Source: Eledone cirrhosa
Lineage: Eukaryota
Assembly (NCBI GenBank): GCA_964016885.1
Contig: OZ024752.1
Coordinates: 29,636,001 to 29,700,000, forward strand
Reading direction: 5' to 3'
DNA length: 64,000 nucleotides
Below, piece by piece: positions 49,668 to 63,632 of this stretch (position 1 is its first letter; the number at the start of each line of letters is the position of its first letter). The position numbers and the translations under genes were made by a program. The notes beneath the pieces are model-generated. The model did not search any database and was not told the origin of the DNA. It worked only from the letters and a program-made list of their open reading frames with translations.

Positions 49668-49704
49668 CTTGTTCTCCTCCGAAGACTTGCTGTCCAGTTC
49701 TCCT
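49668..49704. repeat. diverged, shortened terminal unit of the 69-bp satellite
   Basis: cttgttctcctccgaagacttgctgtccagttctcct aligns to the consensus with 3-nt and 9-nt gaps; minus strand reads GELDSKSSEENKPSKCF versus GELDSRKSSEKNPSPSPSKCF. Confidence 0.8.
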
Positions 49705-49737
49705 GAGAGTTTCTTATCAATGGGATAGTTTATGTAT

Positions 49738-50060
49738 CTTCTCCTTCTCCCAGTTATTTCTGAGACGGTCGTAGGGGTAGAGTCCGGAAACACTCTTTTC
49801 AGCAGGTCCTGTCAGAAGCACCCATCTCCAACTGATCTTGCTGGATCCCCAAGCATGACCAGCCAGGCTCATGGATGTTATCCAACCATCTTGCTCGAGG
49901 TCTACTCCTGGGTCTCTTTCCACTTGGTTTTGCCCATAAAATCTGTCCAGCGATTCTTTCCTGAGACATTCTGATCACAGACCCATAGTATCAGAGCTGT
50001 GATCTCTCAATTCAGAGAAGTAGCAGCTCTAGCTGGAGTGACTCTCTGATCTTCAGTAGT
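49738..50060 (-). mobile_element. decayed RTE-clade LINE 3' fragment (ORF C-terminus and short tail)
   Basis: Minus-strand translation KIRESLQLELLLL*IERSQL*YYGSVIRMSQERIAGQILWAKPSGKRPRSRPRARWLDNI matches the RTE C-terminal pattern (LRWYGHV.RM...GKRPRGRP..RW.D); TGA stops at expected Arg codons fit CpG decay. Confidence 0.85.
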
Positions 50061-50712: not shown

Positions 50713-51086
50713 TATAACTAATAAGCAAACCACTAAGAGTAATTTTATTATAAATCTATATAAATGTATATATATATATATATATATATATTAGTAAAAG
50801 GAAAAGAAAATTCTGACAAATTGTTCCCAGTGAAAAATAGTTTAATTAGGAATAAGTAAAAATTAGTAATAATATTGGTTAGTATTCAGTTTTGGTTTTA
50901 AGTTTTTACCGGTTGCGCATTTCTAATGCTTTTCAAAAATAATTTTGAGATAGAGCGCCCGTGATGTTTGCTCTAATCATATATCTAATCATAAATCTAA
51001 TATATATATATATATATATATACATTATATATAAATTTATATAGATTTATAATAAAATCACTCTTAGTGGTTTGCTTATTAGCTAT
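50713..51086. mobile_element. small inverted-repeat-bounded cassette containing a degenerate hammerhead (Penelope pLTR-like remnant)
   Basis: ataactaataagcaaaccactaagagtaattttattataaatctatataaat (~50713-50764) is the reverse complement, with 2 mismatches, of ~51035-51086; (TA)n tracts lie just inside both arms. Confidence 0.65.
50903..50942 (-). ncRNA. degenerate minimal type I hammerhead ribozyme (U3-A8 core, A13C)
   Basis: Minus strand: TTATTT-TTGAAAA-GCATT-AGA-AATGC-GCAA-CCGG-TA-AAAA: perfect 5-bp stem II, palindromic stem III ACCGGT, GUA triplet; GCAA replaces GAAA and stem I is weak. Confidence 0.5.
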
Positions 51087-51304
51087 CAGTGTCGTTAGAG
51101 TATAAGTCAGAAAGACTTAGAGACTAAAGCCAATCTGGAGAAGGAGAACATGGAAGCTGAAGTAACCTTTAGCTGGTGACAAATTCAGAGAAATCCTACT
51201 GATGCCAATGACAGTAGGATACAAATAATGTCTGCAGTGGTATAAGATCCCAGCAAGATGGTGGTGGGATAATAGGTTAGATAGAGATAGACTTAGAATG
51301 ACTA

Positions 51305-51495
51305 TAATTGTTTCTACTTTTGGCACAAGGCTAGCAATTATCCCAGTGCATTACTGGTACTTTATTTTATTGACCCCGTAAGGATGAAAAGCAAAGTTAA
51401 CCTCGGCGGGAATTGAACTCAGATCATAAAGGGAGGTAACACTATGCTTCAAGGCATGGTGTCTGACCCTTACCGATACTGCCAATACACCGACT
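51305..51495 (-). mobile_element. tRNA-derived SINE with Meta-domain-like core (degraded)
   Basis: Reverse complement contains the B-box-like gagttcaattccc followed by gccgaggttaactttgcttttcatccttacggggtcaataaaataaagtaccag, resembling the MetaSINE-type central domain. Confidence 0.7.
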
Positions 51496-51539
51496 ATAAT
51501 AATGGGTGAACAGTAATAATTCCAGTGTACTGGAGGGAA

Positions 51540-51568
51540 TATACATACACACACCTGTATATGAGTAT

Positions 51569-51601
<33 letters not shown>

Positions 51602-51682
51602 CAAGTATACACACACATATATATACAAGTACACACACACACACATATATATGAGTATACACACATACACACACAGACACTG

Positions 51683-51724
<42 letters not shown>

Positions 51725-51726
51725 GA

Positions 51727-51764
<38 letters not shown>

Positions 51765-51765
51765 G
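51540..51765. repeat. compound (CA)n/(TA)n microsatellite
   Basis: Direct inspection of the sequence. Confidence 0.95.
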
Positions 51766-51868
51766 TGGGACAGAGGCAAATGTGACTACTTGTGGTGTCA
51801 GATGCAGTAAAGTCACAGAGACAAACACACACACATGCATATAGAAGTTTAATGATAATTATATACAT

Positions 51869-52359
51869 GGAGGCACATGGCTTAGTGGTTAGAGCATTGG
51901 CCTCGCAATCGAAAGGTTGTGAGTTCAATTCTCAGACCGAGTAATGTGTTGTTTCCTTGAGCAAGACACTTTATTTCACATTGCTCCAGTTTACTCAGCT
52001 GTAGAAATGAGATTATAGGGACTGGGGTCCCTATCATTCCACTGCAAAGTGGTCGTGTAGGTGCCACGGCAAAAAAAGCACCCAGCCCACACAGTAAAGT
52101 GGACGTGTAGGTGCCACGGCAAAAAAAGCACCCAGCCCACACAGTAAAGTGGTCGTGTAGGTGCCACGGCAAAAAAAGCACCCAGCCCACACAGTAAAGT
52201 GGTCGTGTAGGCGCCATGGCAAAAAAGCACCCAGCACTCACTGTAAATGAGGTTGGTTGAGGTTGGGCATCTTGCTGTAGAAATCAAGCCAGAATCAGTT
52301 CCCGTCCCACCCTTGTAAGCAGGGAAAAAGCGGACGTAAAATGAAATGATGATGATGAT
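51869..52359 (+). mobile_element. tRNA-derived SINE with RTE-LINE-derived 3' tail
   Basis: A-box tggcttagtggtt and B-box gagttcaattc; central tccttgagcaagacacttt motif; tail homologous to the LINE 3' UTR at 58518-58670; ends in (GAT)n. Confidence 0.85.
52046..52245 (+). repeat. 50-bp tandem repeat x4 inside the SINE tail
   Basis: aaagtggtcgtgtaggtgccacggcaaaaaaagcacccagcccacacagt starts at 52046, 52096, 52146 and 52196. Confidence 0.95.
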
Positions 52360-52598
52360 TGTTGCACATGAATGGTGACCACTGGGTGAAGAAGTGCCAA
52401 GAAATCTCAGTGAAAGGAAACCACAGTAGAGGAAGACCAAAGAAGACTTGGGTACAGGAGGTGAGAGTTAATCTGAAATCAGTGAAGCTCACAGAGGAGA
52501 TGACGAAGGAACGTGTCAAGTAGAGGGTGCTGTGTTGAAAAAGACCCATCCAAGCATGGAAAAGTGGATGTAAAATGAAGAACATGATGATGATGATG
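52360..52598 (+). mobile_element. RTE-clade LINE extreme 3' fragment
   Basis: Translates to LHMNGDHWVKKCQEISVKGNHSRGRPKKTWVQEVRVNLKSVKLTEEMTKER, similar to the C-terminus of the 58095-58481 ORF; ends with caagcatggaaaagtggatgtaaa and (GAT)n. Confidence 0.8.
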
Positions 52599-52603
52599 CT
52601 TCT

Positions 52604-53790
52604 ACACACACACATACTCACACACTCACACACACTTATTTTCATTAAACCTATCATACATGTATTAATAATGGCTCTTTTTACATACACACACACACAC
52701 ACACACACATCTTCCCACACAGACACACACACACATGCATACACACACACATGCTCACAGACACGCACACACATCCTCCTACACACACAGGCATACACAC
52801 ACATGCTCAGACACACACACACATGCTCACAGACACACACACATATGCTCACAGACACACACACACATGCTCACAGACTCTCACACACATGCATACATAC
52901 ACACACGCACACACACATGCTCACAGACACACATACACACATGCATACACACACATGCTCACAGACACACATACACATGCATACAGAAACACACACATGC
53001 TCACACACACACATCCTCCCACACACATATGCTCACAGACACACACACACATCCTCCCACACAGACACACACACACATGCATACACACAGACTCACACAC
53101 ATGCTCACAGACACACATACACATACATACACACACACACACACACATGCACACACACACACACATGCATACAGACACACACACACATGCTCAGACACAC
53201 ACATGCTCATAGACACACACACACATACATACAGACTCACACACACATGCTCACAAACTCACACACATGCATACAAACACACACACACATGCTCACAGAC
53301 TCACACACACATGCTCAGACACACACATACACATGCTCACAGACACACACACATGCATACAAACACACACACACATGCATACAGCCTCACACACACATGC
53401 ATACAAACTCACACACACATGCATACAGCCTCACACACACACATGCATACCGACACACACACACATGCATTCAGACACATGCATACAGACACACATACAC
53501 ACACATGTACACTTATTTTATACTCCTCCAACCTATCAAACATGTATTAGTAATGGACCTTTATATACATACACACACACACAGACACATACACATACAC
53601 ACACGCATTCCTCCCCTCCCCCCACTTATTCTATTCTCTTCCAACCTATCAAACATGTATAAGTAATGGACCTTCTCACACACACACACACGCCCTCCCA
53701 GACCAGCCCCACCCCCTCCCAGACCCCCCACATACCCTCCCCCCACTTATTCTATTCTCCCCCAACCTATCAAACATGTATATTAGTGTA
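52604..53790. repeat. complex (CA)n-derived low-complexity array with a recurring ~45-bp motif
   Basis: cacacatgctcacagacacacac variants; cttattctattctc..ccaacctatcaaacatgtat..gtaatggacc-like motif at ~52635, 53511, 53624 and 53744. Confidence 0.9.
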
Positions 53791-53916
53791 GAACATTTAC
53801 CATGTTTGTTTATTATTTTCAAATCATTCTTTCTAAGAAATATCGACTGGATACAAACGTTGAATATGCATAAATATCGATTTAATATTCCTCTTGTCTG
53901 CTTTTGCTTCACTTGT

Positions 53917-54215
53917 TAATAATAATAATAATAATAATAATAATGATAATAATAATGTTTTCTTTATTAACCACAAGGGTTTACATAAAGTAGACATTAA
54001 GGACAGTACAGGACAATACAGGACGGTACAAATGGGCATTTCTGCGTGTAAAAAAAAACAAAAAAAACAAAAAAAACAGAGGAATGTAATAAAAGAACAA
54101 TGAAAAATTCCCCAATAGGGGGGGGGGGACTTCCGAGGGCCATCATGGAGAAAGCCCATTAAAAAGCCACAGTGACCCTGACCACCAGGGCAAGTGCCCT
54201 CTCCCAGATTTCCAC
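53917..54215 (-). mobile_element. probable non-LTR retrotransposon 3' UTR with (ATT)n tail
   Basis: Minus strand ends ...cccttgtggttAATAAAgaaaacatt(att)n, a poly(A) signal followed by a simple-repeat tail; no coding part is visible. Confidence 0.45.
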
Positions 54216-54249
54216 TTTTAATTTACAGACACATACTCAGAGTAGGCCC

Positions 54250-54250
<1 letters not shown>

Positions 54251-54307
<57 letters not shown>

Positions 54308-54355
54308 CAACAATGACAATAATGATAATAGTAATGACCACAATAATAATAATAA
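54251..54355. repeat. (AAT)n microsatellite
   Basis: Direct inspection of the sequence. Confidence 0.95.
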
Positions 54356-55049
54356 AGACAACCACAAAAATGTATATTTTTAATGCCACAGCTTAAATAC
54401 ATTACTACTTTCACTAAAGTACTAAAAACAAGTTGCACTAAAGATGTATCCATTTGTCTATATGTTGTGGCACTGACTTGGGTGATTGGGGAAGGGTCGT
54501 AGTAGCAGTGTATTATTTTAAAACTTTGATGACATGACATTAAGAAATATATCAATGTTCATTGATATAATGGTCTGTCTTACTTTAATTTCTTCTGACA
54601 AGGATTATATGAAAACTCAATGGAATTTTTATTTGATATGTCTTTGTTATTGATATTAAAGGAGGTAAGATAGGGAGAATAGTTTGGCACAGAAGACATA
54701 AAACATGAAAGAATCAATGTAAACGCAGCTACAGCTAGTGGAGGTCATATGGATGGTAGTAATAGCTGGAGAGAGGGTATTAGTAGAGGTGCAGGTGATA
54801 TATTCTGAAATGACCAAAGATTGTAACCCTCCCCAATCAAACAGCGACTGCCTAGTTTATTCAGGATAACTTATGCCCTGTTGATGACTTACTTTACAAG
54901 GGCATGTGTCTTAGCTAACATTATTTCATGTTGCTCAACCAGAAACAACATATGTCAAAGGTTTGTTCTCCTTTCCCATCAATCATATTCACAATACACA
55001 TACACTCATGTATATATGTACAAATACACACACACACATATATATACAT

Positions 55050-55237
55050 ATATATATACTTGAATATAAGCAGAGGAATATGTGACCAAAAAATCGATGG
55101 TAAAATGGGAGGTTGGCTTATATACGCTATCTAAATAATGTCTTGATTAGCTGCCTCGGATTATAAATGGGGTTTGGAGTTTTGCCTATTTCTCAGACAT
55201 AGGGGTTGGGAGTCGGCTTATATTCGAGTATATACGG
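55050..55237. mobile_element. non-autonomous Tc1/mariner-superfamily (Tc2/pogo-like) MITE
   Basis: Left tatatacttgaatataagcaga (55053-55074) versus right tcggcttatattcgagtatatacgg|ta (55213-55239); internal TIR-like copy ttggcttatatacg near 55114. Confidence 0.65.
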
Positions 55238-55239
55238 TA

Positions 55240-55440
55240 TCATCATCATCACCGTTTTACTTCCATTCTTCCATGCTAGCATGGGTTAGATGGCTTGTCC
55301 TGTTGACTGACCTCGTCTTGTTCATACGGGAACTGATTTTGGTTTGATTTCTACAGCTGGATGCCCTTCCTAACACCAACCTCATTTACAGTGAGTGGTG
55401 GGTGCTTTTCTTCCGTGGCACCTACATGATCACTTTACAG
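55240..55440 (-). mobile_element. RTE LINE 3' UTR fragment (same family as 57023-58782)
   Basis: Reverse complement aligns to 58567-58782 (cactcactgtaaatg.ggttggtgttaggaagggcatccagctgtagaaatcaaaccaaa...tctaacccatgcta...aaaacggtgatgatg). Confidence 0.85.
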
Positions 55441-55468
55441 TATGTAGATATATATATATATATATATA

Positions 55469-55536
55469 TTGGGTGGTCAAGTATGAATTATTAGAAATAA
55501 AAAAAATTTCTACAAATTTCATACTTGACGACCCAA
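55469..55536. mobile_element. 68-bp mariner-like mini-MITE / hairpin
   Basis: TA|ttgggtggtcaagtatgaa ... ttcatacttgacgacccaa|TA: 19-bp TIRs with one mismatch, inserted in (TA)n. Confidence 0.7.
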
Positions 55537-55610
55537 TATATATATGTATATATATACATGTATAGTGAGTTACAAATTCTCTTGTTCATTCAATTATATA
55601 TATACATATA

Positions 55611-55661
<51 letters not shown>

Positions 55662-55761
55662 GTATATACATATATACATATATATGTGTGTATATATATA
55701 TATATATATACATGTGTATATATATACACATATATATATATACATGTGTATATATATACAC

Positions 55762-55799
<38 letters not shown>

Positions 55800-55827
55800 C
55801 GGGTTTCTCTCTCTATATATATATATG
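55537..55827. repeat. (TA)n-rich microsatellite
   Basis: Direct inspection of the sequence. Confidence 0.9.
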
Positions 55828-56022
55828 TCGGGTCACTCTCGAGTGCTACTGGTAACATGTAACCCAGTTCAACCTGTCGCATGGTCGGGTCGTCAGCGAC
55901 TAAACCGGCAACCCCACCAAGTTTACTTGGTGAGGAGGGTGATTTTGGACACCCTGCAGGACAAATAACAAAACCTGACGAAGGGCGGAAGAAATCATAA
56001 GAGTCAACGGCCATCCAAAAGT
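55826..56022 (+). mobile_element. GC-rich short interspersed repeat inserted in a TA microsatellite (family unassigned)
   Basis: Abrupt ~200-bp GC-rich island between simple repeats with several hairpins (caccaagt..acttggtg; agggtg..caccct; gtcgc..gcgac). Confidence 0.45.
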
Positions 56023-56096
56023 GTGTAAATATGTATATACACATGTACATATGTATGTATATGTATATATGCATGGGTGCATGTGTATGTATATGT

Positions 56097-56439
56097 GCGG
56101 GGACATAGAAATAGTCAGGCTGGACACCCAATCGCGCGGTTAAACCACAGGGAGTGAAGGACCCCTAGCCTTTCTCAGGGCATTCTTCTAGGAGAAGGCA
56201 ACTCAGGAAACTGGCATAACTCTGATATAAAACCTGTGGCTCAGTAGTTACCGATGATGTTGATCTTTTCTTCTTTTCGGGTTATAGCTACTGTCGCTCA
56301 GAGAGTGGGATTGGCTCAGTGCACAGTCTTTCCTCACTTTAAAAAATATTTTCACACACAGGCATTGCACGATAGAATTAATTAATAATTATTAATAATG
56401 GTATATTGTGCAATGGCGATACTCGATAACGAGGGGGCA

Positions 56440-56445
<6 letters not shown>
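56097..56445 (+). mobile_element. short interspersed repeat, possibly derived from an RTE 5' UTR
   Basis: Island between microsatellites containing tctaggagaaggcaactc...ctctgatataaaacc, a motif resembling RTE-clade 5' UTRs. Confidence 0.4.
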
Positions 56446-56476
<31 letters not shown>

Positions 56477-56596
56477 TCCCGCTTCTACTAATGACCAGTT
56501 CAGGTGTAGGTCACATTTACGGCCCCATTTGATCCTGCACTAGCTGTATGAAGGCAATATATTTGCTGGCTGTGGGACTTTATGTCCTATGTAAGA

Positions 56597-56684
56597 GAAA
56601 ATGCTTTCTGAAGAGCCGAACTTTCCATTGGAAGTCCCTTGGATTTCCAATCTTTTGTGAGGCGAAATGGATAGGTAAATATTT
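56597..56684 (+). ncRNA. type I hammerhead ribozyme motif with long stem II (partly degenerate)
   Basis: CTGAAGA (56608-14), GCC...GGC closing stem II with inner hairpin attggaagtcc/ggatttccaat, GAAA (56664-67), TGG, ATA triplet; stem I pairs poorly. Confidence 0.6.
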
Positions 56685-56751
56685 AAATTATATTTTTTGA
56701 ATTTATTTTGAAAGATTGTTTGAATTTTGCTTGTCCCGCTTATCTCATTTT

Positions 56752-57022
56752 TATATATGTGTATATATATATATATACACACATGTATATATATATACAT
56801 TATACATATATATATGTGTGTATATATACATATATATATATGTGCGTATATATATGTGTGTATATATACATTATACATATATATATATGTGTGTATATAT
56901 ATATATATATACATGTATATATATATATATATACACACACGTGTATATATATATATATATACACATGTATATATATATATATATACACATGTATATATAT
57001 ATATATATATATATAAATATAT
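56752..57022. repeat. (TA)n/(TG)n microsatellite
   Basis: Direct inspection; accounts for the Y/I/H/T-rich N-terminus of ORF 56727-58094. Confidence 0.95.
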
Positions 57023-58782
57023 AGGCGATGCACTAGATAGAGGAAACTATAGAGGTATAAAGCTGATGGACCAGGTCATGAAAGTTACAGAAAGATTTAT
57101 AGCACAGTTGATTAGGGACCGGGTGAAAATAGACGAGAAGCAATTTGGGTTTGTACCAGGAAGAGGCACCACTGATGCCCTCTTCCTTGTGAGGCAGTTA
57201 CAGGAAAAGTACCTAGCTAAAAGTAAGCCACTCTACTTGGCATTTGTAGACCTTGAGAAAGCCTTTGACAGAATTCCACGTGCTGTAATCTGGTGGGCTC
57301 TTAGAAAACTAGGAGTAGATGAATGGCTTGTGAAAGCGGTACAAGCCATGTATAGGGGAGCAGTCAGCAAAGTTAGGATTAGCAATGAGTATAGCAAGGA
57401 ATTTAGCGTACAGGTTGGGGTCCACCAGGGCTCTGTTCTTAGCCCCCTCCTGTTCATCATAGTCCTGCAGGCAATAACGGAGGGGTTTAAGACCGGATGC
57501 CCATGGGAACTCCTGTATGCTGATGACCTCGCACTCATAGCTGAATCTATGGTAGAACTAGAGAATAAATTCCAAACTTGGAAGCAGGGACTAGAAAGAA
57601 AGGGTCTCAAAGTCAACATGACAAAGACTAAGGTCCTTGTAAGTAGACGAGAAAACAGAACCCAGATCCCCTCAGGGAAATGGCCTTGCTCAGTATGTAG
57701 GAAAGGTGTAGGTAGGAACTCCATTCTCTGCCCCAAATGCAAACAATGGGTACACAAGAGATGTAGCGGGATCTCAGGAAGCTTAATTAAGAATGTAGGC
57801 TTCACATGCAGCAGCTGTGCTGAGACAGCAAGCAGCAAACAGCCACAGGAAACAAGTACCACCAATCTCTGGGAGGGCTCTGTAGAAACAGTAGACAGCT
57901 TCTGCTACCTAGGTGACCGAATTAGCAGCGGAGGTGGGTGTTCAGAAAGTACAATAACTAGGGTAAGAACGGGATGGAAGAAGTTTAGGGAACTACTGCC
58001 ACTGCTAGCTGCAAAAGGCTTCTCCCTCAGAATGAAAGGCAGACTGTATGATACGTGTATCCGAACAGCAATGTTGCATGGTAGTGAGACCTAGGTGCTG
58101 AAGGTGGAAGACTTACGTAGATTAGAGAGAAATGAAGCCTGCATGCTCCGATGGATGTGTAACAGTAATATACGTGAACGACAAAGCATAAATGAATTGA
58201 GAGAGAGACTGAGCATAAGAGGAATCAAATGCTGTGTGCAGGAGAGGCGGTTGCGCTGGTATGGACATGTGATGCGTTTGAAGGATGACAGCTGCATAAA
58301 AAGGTGCAGAGCACTAGAAGTTGATGGAAACCGCGGAGTGGGGAGACCCAAGATGACCTGGGATGAGATGATAAAAGCCGACCTTACCCAATTACACCTC
58401 TCAAAGACAATGACACACGACCGTGACCTCTGGCGTCACGCAGTAATACTGAGTACCCGACCTCCCATGGGTACAAGCTGAAGCATATAGACAATATGCC
58501 CCCACACCCCCCACCGCAAGGTGGTCGTGGAGGTGCCACAGCAAAAAAGCACCCAGCCCACACTGTAAAGTGGACGTGTAGGCGCCACGAAAAAGCACCC
58601 AGCACTCACTGTAAATGCGGTTGGTGTTAGGAAGGGCATCCAGCTGTAGAAATCAAACCAAATCAGTTCCTGTCTGAGCAAGGCATGGTCGGCCGACCAG
58701 ACACTGCCTACAACAGGACAACCCGTCTAACCCATGCTAACGTGGAAGAACGGACGTAAAACGGTGATGATAATGATGATGA
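57023..58782 (+). mobile_element. 5'-truncated RTE-clade LINE (RT + Cys/His finger + 3' UTR)
   Basis: [56 protein letters not shown] (57516-57527), FCYLG, LRWYGHVMR, GRPKMTW; 3' UTR ends in (GAT)n; flanked by TA microsatellites. Confidence 0.95.
57024..58481 (+). pseudogene. LINE ORF (reverse transcriptase) with one premature stop
   Basis: One continuous frame except TAG at 58092-58094 where Trp is expected (HGSET*); no start codon or endonuclease domain. Confidence 0.9.
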
Positions 58783-58854
58783 TATATACATATATATATA
58801 TGTATATATATATGTATATATATATATATACATATGTATATATACATATATAAC

Positions 58855-59235
58855 TATCCTCTAAATAATAATTGTTTAGTTAAAAATATAGTATACAATT
58901 GTAATGTCAAAACAAATGAAAACTCCTTTAACTACGTCGGCTCTACTTCTACAGACTTCAAATCTCGTTTTAATAACCATAAATGTTCCTTTACGAATAT
59001 TGGTAAAAAAATCTTCAACTTCTCTATCTAACTTATTATGGGACTTGAAATCCAAGAATATTAACTATTCTTTACTTTGGAAAATTATTTCCAAAGTTCC
59101 TTCATAAACTGCTTTATCCCAAAATTGCTCTCTTTGTGCTGAAGAAATATTCTTTATACTAAAAAGTAAGAACTCTATTAATTTGCGAAATAATTTATTC
59201 AGTTCCTGCAAACATCGTTTAAACTCAACTTTTAA
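58855..59235 (+). pseudogene. GIY-YIG endonuclease domain of a Penelope-like element, disrupted
   Basis: NIVY..YVG..R..H motif; frameshift in the A-run near 59005-59011 and stop at 59105-59107. Confidence 0.8.
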
Positions 59236-60486
59236 ATATATATATATAAAATGTAATATATGATATATCTCTTTTACATAATGTCTTCTATATCTATATA
59301 TGATTCATATATTTAATTTACTTTCTATTATCTCTACTTCACACATATATATACTATATACTTTATATTATTACACCTATCGATATCCTTTGAAAGATAT
59401 AGAAAATCCATTATTTTCATACCTTCCAATATTTTTATATTTTTATATTTTTATATCTTCAAACGTTTTTAATATATATATCCAAATGTTTATATATATG
59501 TGGAAAAACATGATTTTTATATATATAGTTTTTTTTTTTATATATATGTGGAATAACCTATGGTTTACGCTTTAAATATATTCTTAAGATAAATTTTTTA
59601 AATGTTTTAACTTTATAGCAAGTAAATTTATGACTTCGTATAAAATAGCATATGGTTCATATTTTAATTATATTCTTAAGATAAAAATTTTTTTAACTTT
59701 TTAACTTTATAACATTTAATCCTTAGAGTCATCTGAGTTCTTAAAAAAATCACTTCTAACTTCCCTTACACTTCCTTACTGTTTTTATAATATAACTAAG
59801 TGGTTATTCCTTTGTAAACTCTCGTAAATGTTTCATAAATTTAGAATATTTGGATGTTTAAATTTTTGACTTACAACTTTCAATAAAATAAACAATACTA
59901 GATTTGCTCTAATGTAAAATACTATATATTTATTTAAATAATTTATAATCCTTAACATACACATTTAAACTAATTATTAATATTAAATTATTAAATTAAA
60001 TCTTTAATATTAAGGTAAATTTTAATCTTTAATTTTGATTTCTAATTTTTTAATTTTAATTTAATTTAAATCTAATTTTTCAAACTATCATTATAAGTAT
60101 TATAATCAAAACGTAATGAATCCTGCATTATAAATATTATTCTTCCACGTTATTCTCATTTCTTCTCTCACTTAGATATACTTACGCTGTGAAACTCATC
60201 TCTTCATGCACTCATATATATAATCGTTCTTTCTTTCTTCTTCTATCTTTCTCCTTTCTTTTTTCTTATTTTTTTCTTTTTTTCTCTCTCCCTTACATAT
60301 CACCTTCCAACAGTTTAATTTAAATAAACCATTATCTTTTCAACCTTTCGGACACTTATTTGCATACTCACTCATAATTTTATATCACCCTCAATAAATG
60401 TACTATCTCCACTATCCAGGAAGCTCCAACTGTTAAGGTTGTCTTTTTTTCTGAGTATGTCAATATTTATCTATAAAACAAATCTG

Positions 60487-60552
60487 TATTTTATCTGATG
60501 AAAGTGCACCATAATTTGCCTTGGTTGCCCTTGAAATATGTATAATAAAATA
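60487..60552 (+). ncRNA. minimal type I hammerhead ribozyme, canonical core
   Basis: Stem I TATTTTAT/ATAAAATA; CTGATGA 60495-60501; stem II AAGTGCACC/GGTTGCCCTT; GAAA 60533-36; stem III ATA-TG-TAT; AUA triplet, predicted cleavage after 60544. Confidence 0.85.
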
Positions 60553-60684
60553 AATATGGTTTTATAAATATAGTTTCCATTTATTAATATATTGTGTATT
60601 TACTCCACTAATCTGTGAGTGCTTTATATCAATTATAAAAATGTTTAAGCTTGTTGAATCCCAACAAATTAAATATAACCTCTG

Positions 60685-60743
<59 letters not shown>

Positions 60744-60782
60744 GTATATATATACACAGGTGTGTATGATTGTGTATAGATT

Positions 60783-61038
60783 ATATTAATAAAAGGAATT
60801 CCAGCTTTGTCTGATTAACTCGTTTTATTTCAACAGTCAAGTTTGCAATTTTCAAAAATTGCAAACTTGACTGTCACCACTGAATATGAACCTGAAGATT
60901 GTGAAAGCATGAAAGTACTTGTTCAATTAACATTTAATATTTTATTCTACCATACTATTTCATTATAATATCATAATTTTAAAGGATTGTAAATAAAACG
61001 AGTTAATCAGACAAAGTTGGAATTCTTTTTATTAATAT
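60783..61038. mobile_element. ~256-bp inverted-repeat-bounded cassette carrying a hammerhead and a perfect palindrome
   Basis: atattaataaaaggaattccagctttgtctgattaactcgttttattt (60783-60830) versus aaataaaacgagttaatcagacaaagttggaattctttttattaatat (60991-61038), 2 mismatches. Confidence 0.75.
60887..60925 (+). ncRNA. minimal type I hammerhead ribozyme
   Basis: TGAAC-CTGAAGA-TTGT-GAAA-GCAT-GAAA-GTAC-TT-GTTCA: 5-bp stem I, GNRA-capped stem II with U.U mismatch at the first pair, palindromic stem III AGTACT, CUU triplet. Confidence 0.75.
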
Positions 61039-61303
61039 ATATATATATATATCTGGTTGAGCAATCTTTGAAGTGTGGGGACAGCTGGAAGGCTTCCATT
61101 ACTCATACTTCTCGACTTCTTCACCACCTCTTCTACGGCCTCGATATAAGTACCCCCTCCGCCTCCGTGGTATTTTCTTCGGGGTTATAGGAGGCTTAGC
61201 TCTGTTTCTCGACCGTTATATCGCGTGACTATCTCCCCCTCCGCCTTTTGGGATTCTTTCTCACGTCGTGTAGACGCGTTCTTGAGACTAGTAAAATGAG
61301 GTA

Positions 61304-61393
61304 TCCTCTTGATAAGTCGGCAGACCTTGCAAGGACTCTATATCTTTATGATATATTGTTTTTGTTTATGCCACGAAACTACGTAGTCGAGGA
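61304..61393 (+). ncRNA. type I hammerhead ribozyme, U3-A8 core variant
   Basis: Stem I TCCTC/GAGGA; core TTGATAA (61309-15); stem II GT(C)GGCA/TGCCAC with long extension; GAAA 61375-78; palindromic stem III ACTACGTAGT; GUC triplet, predicted cleavage after 61388. Confidence 0.8.
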
Positions 61394-61730
61394 ATTTAGG
61401 AGCAGTTTAGGTATGATACATTTTATTACTAATTATATCTAAATGTTTCTTCTCTCTTCATAATATATATATATATACATATGTATATATACATATTTGT
61501 TTTGCGAGGTTTTTGATATGTAATCCTGTGTCGAAACAAATATTGTTATACTTTTGAGGGTCATATTGTTGTAATAATATTGCCAGAAATAATAACAGAA
61601 CACACTCACTGTTTGGCTGATTTTCGCTTCTGTACATTTTATATCTCCACAGTTAATTTATTTGGTCCTCGATGTTTATCATTGACTGACCAACGGTCAA
61701 AAATACAGATGTAAATACATATATATAGTC

Positions 61731-61774
61731 TAACAAAGTTCTTTCGTTGCACATCTGCAACATCATCAGTGGTA
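61731..61774 (-). ncRNA. minimal type I hammerhead ribozyme motif (slightly degenerate)
   Basis: Minus strand: TACCA-CTGATGA-T-GTTGCA-GATG-TGCAAC-GAAA-GAAC-TT-TGTTA; perfect 6-bp stem II, one extra U after the core, one mismatch in stem I. Confidence 0.65.
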
Positions 61775-61834
61775 CTATTATGTTCCTCCTGTTGATTTGT
61801 ATGTCTACGCCAAAAATGGTGTAGACATACAATG

Positions 61835-62640
61835 CAAAATGGAGTGTACAGGGGCCATAGAAAGTAGCTCCAAAATGGAGTGTACAGGGGCCATAGAAAG
61901 TAACTCCAAAATGGAGTGTACAGGGGCCATAGGAAGTAACTCCAAAATGGAGTGTACAGGGGCCATAGAAAGTAACTCCAAAATGGAGTGTACAGGGGCC
62001 ATAGGAAGTAACTCCAAAATGGAGTGTACAGGGGCCATAGGAAGTAACTCCAAAATGGAGTGTACAGGGGCCATAGAAAGTAACTCCAAAATGGAGTGTA
62101 CAGGGGCCATAGGAAGTAACTCCAAAATGGAGTGTACAGGGGCCATAGGAAGTAACTCCAAAATGGAGTGTACAGGGGCCATAGGAAGTAACTCCAAAAT
62201 GGAGTGTACAGGGGCCATAGGAAGTAGCTCCAAAATGGAGTGTACAGGGGCCATAGAAAGTAACTCCAAAATGGAGTGTACAGGGGCCATAGGAAGTAAC
62301 TCCAAAATGGAGTGTACAGGGGCCATAGAAAGTAACTCCAAAATGGAGTGTACAGGGGCCATAGAAAGTAACTCCAAAATGGAGTGTACAGGGGCCATAG
62401 AAAGTAGCTCCAAAATGGAGTGTGCAGGGGCCATAGGAAGTAACTCCAAAATGGAGTGTACAGGGGCCATAGGAAGTAGCTCCAAAATGGAGTGTACAGG
62501 GGCCATAGGAAGTAACTCCAAAATGGAGTGTACAGGGGCCATAGGAAGTAACTCCAAAATGGAGTGTACAGGGGCCATAGGAAGTAGTTCCAAAATGGAG
62601 TGTGCAGGGGCCATAGAAAGTAACTCCAAAATGGAGTGTG
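61835..62640. repeat. 36-bp minisatellite, ~22 copies
   Basis: caaaatggagtgtacaggggccatag(a/g)aagta(a/g)ctc in tandem with no spacers. Confidence 0.98.
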
Positions 62641-63522: not shown

Positions 63523-63632
63523 TCATCATCATCATCATCATCATCATTTTACGTCAGCTTTTCCCTGCTTGCAAGGGTGGGACGGGAACTGATTCTGGCT
63601 TGATTTCTACAGCTGGATGCCCTTCCTAACCC
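63523..63632 (-). mobile_element. SINE/LINE 3' tail fragment
   Basis: Reverse complement matches 52255-52359 (gctgtagaaatcaagccagaatcagttcccgtcccacccttg.aagcagggaaaa..gacgtaaaatga(tga)n). Confidence 0.85.

Follow-up and report, generated by a model that had tools for sequence, protein, structure and literature searches.

Five TA-bounded hammerhead ribozyme motifs, at least three of them in high-copy families, were found in the window, the whole 64,000-nt stretch of DNA that was analysed. They probably represent the 3′ ends of several Penelope-like families, Hydra-type ones included, together with one non-coding repeat of probable Penelope origin; their tandem transcripts would cut themselves as ribozyme dimers and be reinserted into TA repeats by Penelope enzymes. 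Two copies would pair via a palindromic helix III into a double hammerhead, whose cleavage after NUH would release unit-length RNA; for one motif (H5) a monomer fold followed by circularisation may also occur. As published Penelope biology suggests, reverse transcriptase (RT) and a GIY-YIG endonuclease would nick (TA)n, and reverse transcription would mostly stop early, so that short 3′ fragments remain whose ends snap back or are inverted. With every insertion one TA tract would become two fresh targets, leading to nesting. The copies in this region are likely dead or orphan relics.

Hammerhead motifs and chance expectation

Motifs were judged against the core C3-U4-G5-A6-N7-G8-A9 / G12-A13-A14-A15.1 / U16.1-H17, with the 3-8 pair. 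The six sites are as follows.

50907–50936, minus strand: H1, decayed hammerhead-like motif with U3, A8 and A13C, a 5-bp stem II, palindromic ACCGGT and a 3-bp stem I
56608–56673, plus strand: H2, intact core, long G-C closed stem II with an 11-bp hairpin, helix III ATGGAT
60487–60552, plus strand: H3, type I hammerhead with an 8-bp stem I, A-U closed stem II, self-complementary helix III and cleavage triplet AUA
60887–60925, plus strand: H4, minimal type I hammerhead in the Hydra-element layout (U·U at the base of stem II, GAAA loop, AGTACT, CUU) with a 5-bp stem I
61304–61393, plus strand: H5, type I hammerhead with a U3-A8 core, 5-bp stem I, 59-nt stem II, 10-nt palindromic helix III and GUC
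61736–61769, minus strand: H6, minimal hammerhead with an extra U after A9, G10.1-C11.1, a 6-bp stem II, AGAACT, CUU and a weak stem I

A preliminary description had proposed six minimal hammerheads here. All six sites are present close to where it placed them, but they are not six intact motifs, H1 being broken and H2 almost devoid of stem I. The type I core is intact in five of six (56608+, 60495+, 60892+, 61309+ and 61769−): H2, H3, H4 and H6 have the canonical form, and H5 (TTGATAA) replaces C3-G8 by U3-A8, thus retaining the 3-8 pair. U3-A8 is a natural and active covariation of the hammerhead core (PMC3088659), with some 1,300 matches in Schistosoma (Cervera & de la Pena 2014, PMC4209133). 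H1 fails through A13C; its core (TTGAAAA...GCAA, 50936–50907 on the minus strand) is not intact and its stem I is A-U; the site is likely inactive and at chance level. H2 reads CTGAAGA...GAAA, with a stem I of a mere two G·U pairs, and appears atypical or decayed.

The chance expectation was taken from 500-nt block dinucleotide shuffles of the 14.3-kb unique region. A first descriptor gave 2 strict matches against a mean of 0.015 per shuffle and 4 relaxed matches against 0.135 (maximum 1 in 200 shuffles); it missed H1, as well as H5, which has a bulge in stem II. A second descriptor, loosened after H5 had been seen, gave 5 against 0.27 and 3 against 0.02. With neither descriptor did shuffled DNA yield intact cores in the numbers observed: 0 of 200 and 0 of 100 shuffles, respectively, get that far. 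H1-type matches with one core deviation are another matter (1 against 0.15; 14 of 100 shuffles get there), and a similar site at 50813(+), with G8A and no U3, was rejected as being at chance level. A site at 55975(+) was rejected for having no stem II.

That the whole set consists of chance matches in hairpin-rich, AT-rich DNA is scarcely credible. It holds for H1 and the 50813 site, and it fits both the unremarkable fold z-scores (H3 −0.70, H4 0.26, H1 0.48) and the Rfam scans, in which no hammerhead model matched at E ≤ 5 (window) or E ≤ 10 (60400–61850) and the sole results were microsatellite-driven miRNA matches under the gathering score. The Rfam silence is presumably because these are minimal variants without the loops in the covariance models. 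Against chance stand the intact-core counts and the family differences described below, which respect the motif; for H3, H4 and H5 jointly the chance reading is already refuted.

Four motifs fall inside 1.3 kb, and a TA tract lies within 150 nt downstream of four of the five intact ones, compared with 24% of positions at this cut-off, which was chosen afterwards. The 69-bp satellite was tried as a hammerhead source and rejected: CTGAAGA occurs in 682 units, a GAAA-type second core in about six, and no helices fit. The satellite is unrelated to the hammerhead islands. ARAGORN found no tRNA. Scans for exact motifs found no H5 in metagenome or viral contigs, no H6 in metagenome contigs, no H4 in GTDB genomes and no H3 in viral contigs.

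Helices I–III, open at helix I, are present in H3, H4 and H5 (stem I of 8, 5 and 5 bp), and stem I is weak in H6 (2 bp, a mismatch, 2 bp) and H2. Stem III, proposed to be palindromic or nearly so, is fully self-complementary in H3, H4 and H5 (perfectly so in the H5 palindrome) and self-complementary at 4/6 positions in H2 and H6. Helix III of H3, H4 and H5 would suit dimers, as had been proposed: the computed dimer folds of these three lie within 0.4–1.6 kcal/mol per strand of the cofold minimum and are better than the monomer folds by 6–8 kcal/mol. For H2 and H6, both with poor stems I, the computed hammerhead folds lie 10–15 kcal/mol above competing folds.

Repeat families, island ends and Penelope coding sequence

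Mapping was done on 60756–61830, which covers H4, H5 and H6 and not H1–H3; run X1 supplied 8,402 contigs and X21 377,880 reads. Each of these three motifs is part of a high-copy family. Fourteen further runs, with shares of 0.05–0.18, do not enter into the results. Among the 40 of 119 family differences that were listed for H4–H6, the conserved core bases are untouched except for the free N7; the differences set one copy against the majority and are not true covariation. The T>C change at 60902, seen in >99% of X1 depth, converts a U·G of H4 stem II into C-G, restoring the pair, and a difference at 61765 alters just N7 of H6. In contig X5-10 the H5 differences leave U3-A8 intact and affect unpaired positions of stem II. 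H6 has a second subfamily, with loose ends at 61740 in X5 and X21, in which helix III and the triplet are changed and, by eye, U16.1, an H17 and self-complementarity are retained. The islands and the nearby coding sequence comprise:

50718–50763, no strand assigned: 46-bp inverted repeat arm, 98% identical to 51037–51082, outside the TA tracts flanking the H1 island
51037–51082, no strand assigned: partner arm of that 46-bp inverted repeat
58858–59218, plus strand: broken C-terminal GIY-YIG endonuclease of a Hydra-clade Penelope-like element, starting directly after a TA tract
60756–60830, minus strand: inverted copy of the H4 element 3′ end plus an extension (60787–60830 is 95% identical to 60991–61034)
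60833–60874, no strand assigned: 19-bp foldback where the H4 copy is presumably truncated on its 5′ side
60991–61034, plus strand: 3′ terminus of the H4 element; a TA tract comes next
61504–61812, minus strand: 3′ end of a third high-copy family (that of H6), continuous over overlapping contigs, with a TA tract at the end
61797–61832, no strand assigned: 16-bp foldback where the H6 copy is presumably truncated on its 5′ side

The inverted 3′ end, the tail of about 30 bp, the foldback and the TA flanks of the H4 island are marks of Penelope 5′ truncation; inverted 5′ copies and 30–40-bp tails are published for these elements. The layout of H4 itself is that of published Hydra-element hammerheads, e.g. 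Hydra-1_aJap and Penelope-3_HM, and such hammerheads lie mostly ~90–210 nt from the 3′ ends of elements nearly all listed as (TA)n-targeted. Terminal inverted repeats of 44–46 bp with 95–98% identity and TA flanks could instead make the H1 and H4 islands MITE-like DNA transposons, carrying hammerhead-like sequence by accident. We consider this very unlikely, because the H4 arms are asymmetric, with an extension of about 31 bp (60756–60786) that is missing from the sense end; because family depth, high across 60756–60827, drops about 20-fold in sum over the left arm of the internal foldback (17,923 against 374,761 in the next bin), so that the island is not repeated as a whole; and because the H4 pattern is the published Penelope insertion pattern.

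The endonuclease fragment has a frameshift near 59000 and one stop. It matches Pfam GIY-YIG at the cut-off (E 1.4e-4) and, by tblastn, its relative P0029 (E 4e-22), and it is of the Hydra-clade type, without CCHH and with CxxC + CxH around E and N. Its RT-bearing relatives have RWK, DKT and CxCx5C; in one of them (P0076), 51% identical across the matched stretch, the RT is found with RWK, DKT and a CxCx5C linker. The RT of the element at 58858–59218 is missing here through truncation. The preliminary description had credited one motif with visible coding sequence. Such a fragment does exist, but it ends 1,277 nt (1.28 kb) upstream of H3 on the same strand, more than the 2.1–2.7-kb Hydra elements normally permit; this argues against a link, which is unproven. 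A search by tblastn with 150 relatives and by two profiles found no other Penelope coding sequence in the window, and none near H2, H4, H5 or H6. No motif in the window is physically joined to a Penelope ORF, which counts against the Penelope reading.

Two further RT candidates were rejected: a thumb-like resemblance near 59840–59950, seen by eye, is unsupported by tblastn or profile search, and the large RT at 57018–58478 is that of an RVT_1+PHD LINE. The best named matches in the RT search were from Hydractinia, Mercenaria and Branchiostoma (54–63%). No relative turned up when viral contigs were searched with Hydra protein sequence.

The suggestion that distinct Penelope-type ribozyme repeat families have gathered near TA tracts is borne out by the high-copy H4–H6 families and the Hydra-clade coding sequence. 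The added conclusion that most are non-autonomous does not follow, since Penelope copies are usually 5′-truncated and both H4 and H6 bear truncation marks; the missing coding sequence is accounted for mostly by 5′ truncation and not by non-autonomy. That most or all islands are short retrozymes that never had an ORF is a possible but unlikely reading. It draws on the closed H5 unit described below, on the lack of Penelope coding near H2, H4, H5 and H6, on the AT-rich family sequence directly upstream of H6, and on published monomers derived from Penelope ends. Against it, H4 and H6 stop at foldbacks where family coverage falls or, past 61812 in other H6 family members, the sequence diverges, like truncated copies; H4 resembles the hammerheads of ORF-bearing Hydra elements; and a Hydra endonuclease fragment lies within the same TA landscape.

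The H5 repeat unit

61053–61461, plus strand: incomplete copy (~400 nt) of a unit of ~590 nt that repeats head to tail, a candidate non-LTR retrozyme, from contig data

Positive evidence of a short unit without coding sequence exists for the H5 family alone. A single 620-nt contig (X5, n = 1) closes on itself as a ~590-nt head-to-tail repeat, and a 577-nt contig (X6) is compatible with this unit; the window contains less than one unit, about 200 nt of which were not seen. The family is likely a non-coding, non-LTR retrozyme. A further reading, in which it would be an active retroelement with a viroid-like circular RNA of ~590 nt, cleaving as a monomer (long stem II, 3-bp helix III) and maybe spreading between species, strikes us as highly doubtful. 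Runs that carry the labels of three different organisms contain near-identical versions of the family (about 97%), but in X6 all three families occur at roughly X1 proportions with depth thousands-fold lower, as in a trace or skim of a like genome, which argues against such spread. Like animal non-LTR retrozymes (Cervera & de la Pena 2020, PMC7229834; Li, Clavereau & Pollet 2026, 10.64898/2026.07.22.740005), the candidate has a unit that lacks coding sequence, repeats head to tail and bears one type I hammerhead; in both, copies in the genome are solo or partial and Penelope elements occur alongside. Animal retrozyme units span 51–972 bp in these sources, and those expressed ~170–400 nt, a range that the H5 unit exceeds; its U3-A8 core and long stem II also differ.

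Relation to published elements

The minimal type I hammerheads of metazoan Penelope elements (PMC4209133) share with ours the short palindromic helix III, the short helix I, a base added after A9 and the U3-A8 core, and likewise occur as many unrelated families per genome, mostly as solitary motifs of truncated elements with neighbours on opposite strands. Unlike them, H2, H3 and H5 have longer stems II (31–59 nt), that of H3 being A-U closed, and the window is without a tandem motif pair flanking an ORF. With the Hydra clade, including Hydra-1_Obim of Octopus bimaculoides (Craig et al. 2021, PMC8557442), the shared features are GIY-YIG without CCHH and with CxxC + CxH, (TA)n targeting, a sense hammerhead near the 3′ end, U·U as in H4, and inverted 5′ copies; the differences are that no RT is present here and that the hammerhead of Hydra-1_Obim is another. 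Six short window motifs were looked for in the text of that paper's supplement, where line breaks might mask a match, and none was present; the window motifs appear to belong to other families. Palindromic helix III, U3-A8, TA targeting and Penelope-origin retrozymes are already published, and the present motifs add one more case to a phenomenon already known.

On hammerheads in octopus repeats, the literature outside subscription papers, Repbase and Dfam gave nothing beyond Hydra-1_Obim; a hammerhead count of 235 is on record for giant squid. The words ribozyme and hammerhead are absent from a 2026 Octopus vulgaris repeat annotation, its supplement aside. Since Rfam misses all the motifs and this annotation is silent, hammerhead descriptors could help to class 'unknown' repeats. 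For a microsatellite-rich marine invertebrate, the window adds several apparently unlisted Penelope-type hammerhead families and a candidate high-copy ~590-nt U3-A8 retrozyme. H5 offers a convenient way to ask if a U3-A8 hammerhead is functional in animal retroelements and if Penelope ends give rise to retrozymes.

Hammerhead motifs and their chance expectation

All six sites at which the preliminary description had placed hammerhead ribozymes were found in the sequence. They are given here with their cores (standard numbering) and predicted energies (kcal/mol per strand; hammerhead monomer / dimer / best cofold).

H1, 50936 (-): U3, A8 and A13C; stem I only 3 bp
H2, C3 at 56608 (+): canonical; -9.9 / -13.3 / -27.5
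H3, 60495 (+): canonical; -4.7 / -10.5 / -11.1
H4, 60892 (+): canonical; +2.6 / -5.4 / -7.0
H5, 61309 (+): C3 and G8 replaced by U3 and A8, 3-8 pair kept; -23.5 / -31.5 / -31.9
H6, 61769 (-): canonical; +1.1 / -3.3 / -13.5

In the 14.3-kb unique region, our first descriptor gave two motifs when strict and four when relaxed, while 200 local dinucleotide shuffles of that region averaged 0.015 and 0.135; it missed H5 because of a bulge in its stem II. A second descriptor, loosened after that miss, gave five motifs against 0.27 per shuffle, a count reached in none of 100 shuffles. The five are therefore genuine as a group, H3-H5 firmly so, and the proposed comparison of motif density with shuffled sequence bears this part of the claim out. 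H1, with its A13C core, drops out: it is not distinguishable from chance, because one-deviation matches of its type reached that level in 14 of 100 shuffles. The H1 island also holds a second hammerhead-like site, with G8A, on the opposite strand (50813-50843, +), at chance level. The suggested Rfam search listed no hammerhead family here, including in a scan of 60400-61850 at E<=10.

Dimers through the palindromic helix III are predicted to be near-optimal for H3, H4 and H5, since their dimer energies lie near the best cofold; the predicted H5 monomer is within 1.5 kcal/mol of its own minimum (fold z -3.29). The hammerhead fold is predicted to be disfavoured in the window copies of H2 and H6. 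Cervera and de la Pena 2014 (PMC4209133) describe palindromic helix III, an extra base after A9, a U3-A8 core, numerous mutually unrelated families within one genome, isolated truncated copies, neighbouring motifs on opposite strands and weak, dimer-only cleavage; Perreault et al. (PMC3088659) describe U3-A8 as natural and active.

Repeat families and the H5 unit

We compared 4 of 23 sequence runs with 60756-61830, which takes in H4-H6 only. At >=80%, 8,402 contigs of run X1 and 377,880 reads of run X21 matched, both organism A, with deep coverage of all three islands in each; thousands of copies are implied, although depth itself is not copy number. Our statements on family differences rest on the 40 of 119 listed for this stretch. 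Among these, the only one in the H4 motif, 60902 T>C (>99% of X1 depth), turns a stem II wobble into C-G; in the H6 motif, 61765 alters N7 and 61774 an outer base of stem I, for which no change of the pairing partner is listed. Loose ends at 61740 (X5, X21) belong to an H6 subfamily with a different helix III and triplet, in which U16.1, an H17 and self-complementarity are kept (read by eye). Contig X5-10 differs from 61216-61450, around H5, by one base and two gaps. The base, 61328, and the listed gap, 61347, both map to unpaired stretches of stem II as predicted, and U3-A8 is therefore the H5 family state in this contig. The listed differences, rather than covariation analysis, support putative selection on the motif in H4-H6. 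Family depth in X1 and X6 is highest at 61504-61620, the H6-family 3' end, and TA-rich loose ends at 61556 suggest that 3' termini vary or that another repeat is shared here.

Contig X5-10 (record 10 of X5, 620 nt) runs through 61216-61450, then 203 other nt, some of which may be window bases skipped as repeats by the tool, then 61062-61245. Its ends overlap by 30 nt, as in a closed loop of a 31-mer assembly graph, from which we infer a head-to-tail H5 unit of ~590 nt. X6 record 17 (577 nt), reaching 170 nt past 61450 and 20 nt ahead of 61062, fits this unit. The unit may be tandem DNA or circular RNA: neither X5 nor X6 is recorded as RNA, and both forms fit. Alternatively, the self-closing contig may be a recurrent pLTR (pseudo-LTR) junction of a longer element. 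Read as a ~590-nt unit, it supports for H5, and not for the other motifs, the earlier view that the elements are mostly non-autonomous. X6 carries all three families at about X1 proportions, thousands-fold lower, a pattern that resembles a trace or skim from a genome of the same kind more than it does horizontal transfer. The H4 family is absent from X5.

Island anatomy and surrounding repeats

The H4 island comprises, 5' to 3', a TA tract, a ~31-bp extension, an inverted 3'-end copy, a foldback, a sense copy with H4, and a TA tract.

60787-60830: inverted copy of the H4-island 3' end (60991-61034)
60833-60874: H4-island foldback, 19 bp
61797-61832: foldback ending the H6 copy, where other family members continue differently

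Family depth falls ~20-fold over the left arm of the H4-island foldback, so this junction is largely copy-specific. A 36-bp minisatellite (61835-62639; 22 copies, 96% matches) begins directly after the H6 foldback. TA tracts lie <=150 nt 3' of four of the five intact motifs (89, 150, 115 and 75; H6, 260), against 24% of positions at this cut-off, which was picked afterwards. Isolated foldback islands at 55470-55535 and 56363-56415 adjoin TA tracts and may be minimal snap-backs left by truncated insertions. Penelope-like elements are often truncated at the 5' end, carry inverted 5' copies and tails of 30-40 bp, and target (TA)n (Craig et al., PMC8557442); in the same source, most Hydra-clade hammerheads are placed ~90-210 nt before the 3' end, and stem II of several is U.U-based, as in H4.

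Coding sequence for a GIY-YIG domain, interrupted by a frameshift and a stop, occupies 58858-59218; E and N are flanked by CxxC and CxH, and CCHH is absent. A full-length relative, P0076, has RWK, DKT and CxCx5C, which belong to the Hydra-clade definition (Craig et al., PMC8557442). The fragment has the same orientation as H3 and ends 1,277 nt upstream of it, more than 2.1-2.7-kb Hydra elements normally allow, and the link to H3 is only a candidate.

The RT at 57018-58478 (+), with RVT_1 and PHD finger domains, is unrelated to Penelope. It is a 5'-truncated LINE, presumably RTE-like, inserted after a TA tract, with one stop (~58092) and 2,230 relatives at E<=1e-60. A dispersed repeat (80-95%) is common to 52040-52306, 55252-55444, 58505-58764 and 63547-63631; a 50-bp tandem lies inside it at 52046-52247. 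Because a tRNA-like head (51878-51935; Rfam 26.5 bits, below cut-off) precedes the first copy and that at 58505 is the LINE 3' end, this is likely a SINE/LINE tail pair. A structured, GC-richer island between TA tracts (55800-56010, +), which opens with a 29-bp duplication and has no Rfam match, is presumably like an RTE 5' UTR, where HDV-like ribozymes occur.

The window is animal-type DNA, and its repeat landscape looks similar to that of octopuses. A 69-bp satellite (1-49667; ~720 copies, 96% matches) has 54% GC against ~30-40% outside, and an AT-rich, microsatellite-rich stretch lies downstream. All three frames of the minus strand are almost free of stops (13-27, with runs of up to 7,428 codons). 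Each unit contains CTGAAGA, yet no hammerhead. The satellite passes gradually into unique sequence at 49700-50060, which we take to be similar to the C-terminal part and tail of a degraded RTE-type LINE (minus).

Proposed mechanism and known relatives

We are fairly confident that the window holds 3' ends of several Penelope-like families and one probable Penelope-derived retrozyme (a short non-coding ribozyme-bearing retroelement). In the proposed mechanism, double hammerheads would arise via helix III in tandem or read-through transcripts, releasing unit RNA, which Penelope RT and endonuclease would copy, mostly truncated, into (TA)n; two TA targets would remain after every insertion, so that nests build up. 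The window copies are likely relics.

Non-LTR retrozymes and their Penelope origin have been published (PMC7229834; 10.64898/2026.07.22.740005), and Hydra-1_Obim, a hammerhead-bearing Hydra element of octopus, is already listed (PMC8557442). The motifs were well recognized in the preliminary description, with five rather than six as the corrected count. Since a short-motif text search of the supplement of Craig et al. (PMC8557442), where line breaks may hide a match, found none, the window families would be further members of the known hammerhead-bearing Penelope type.
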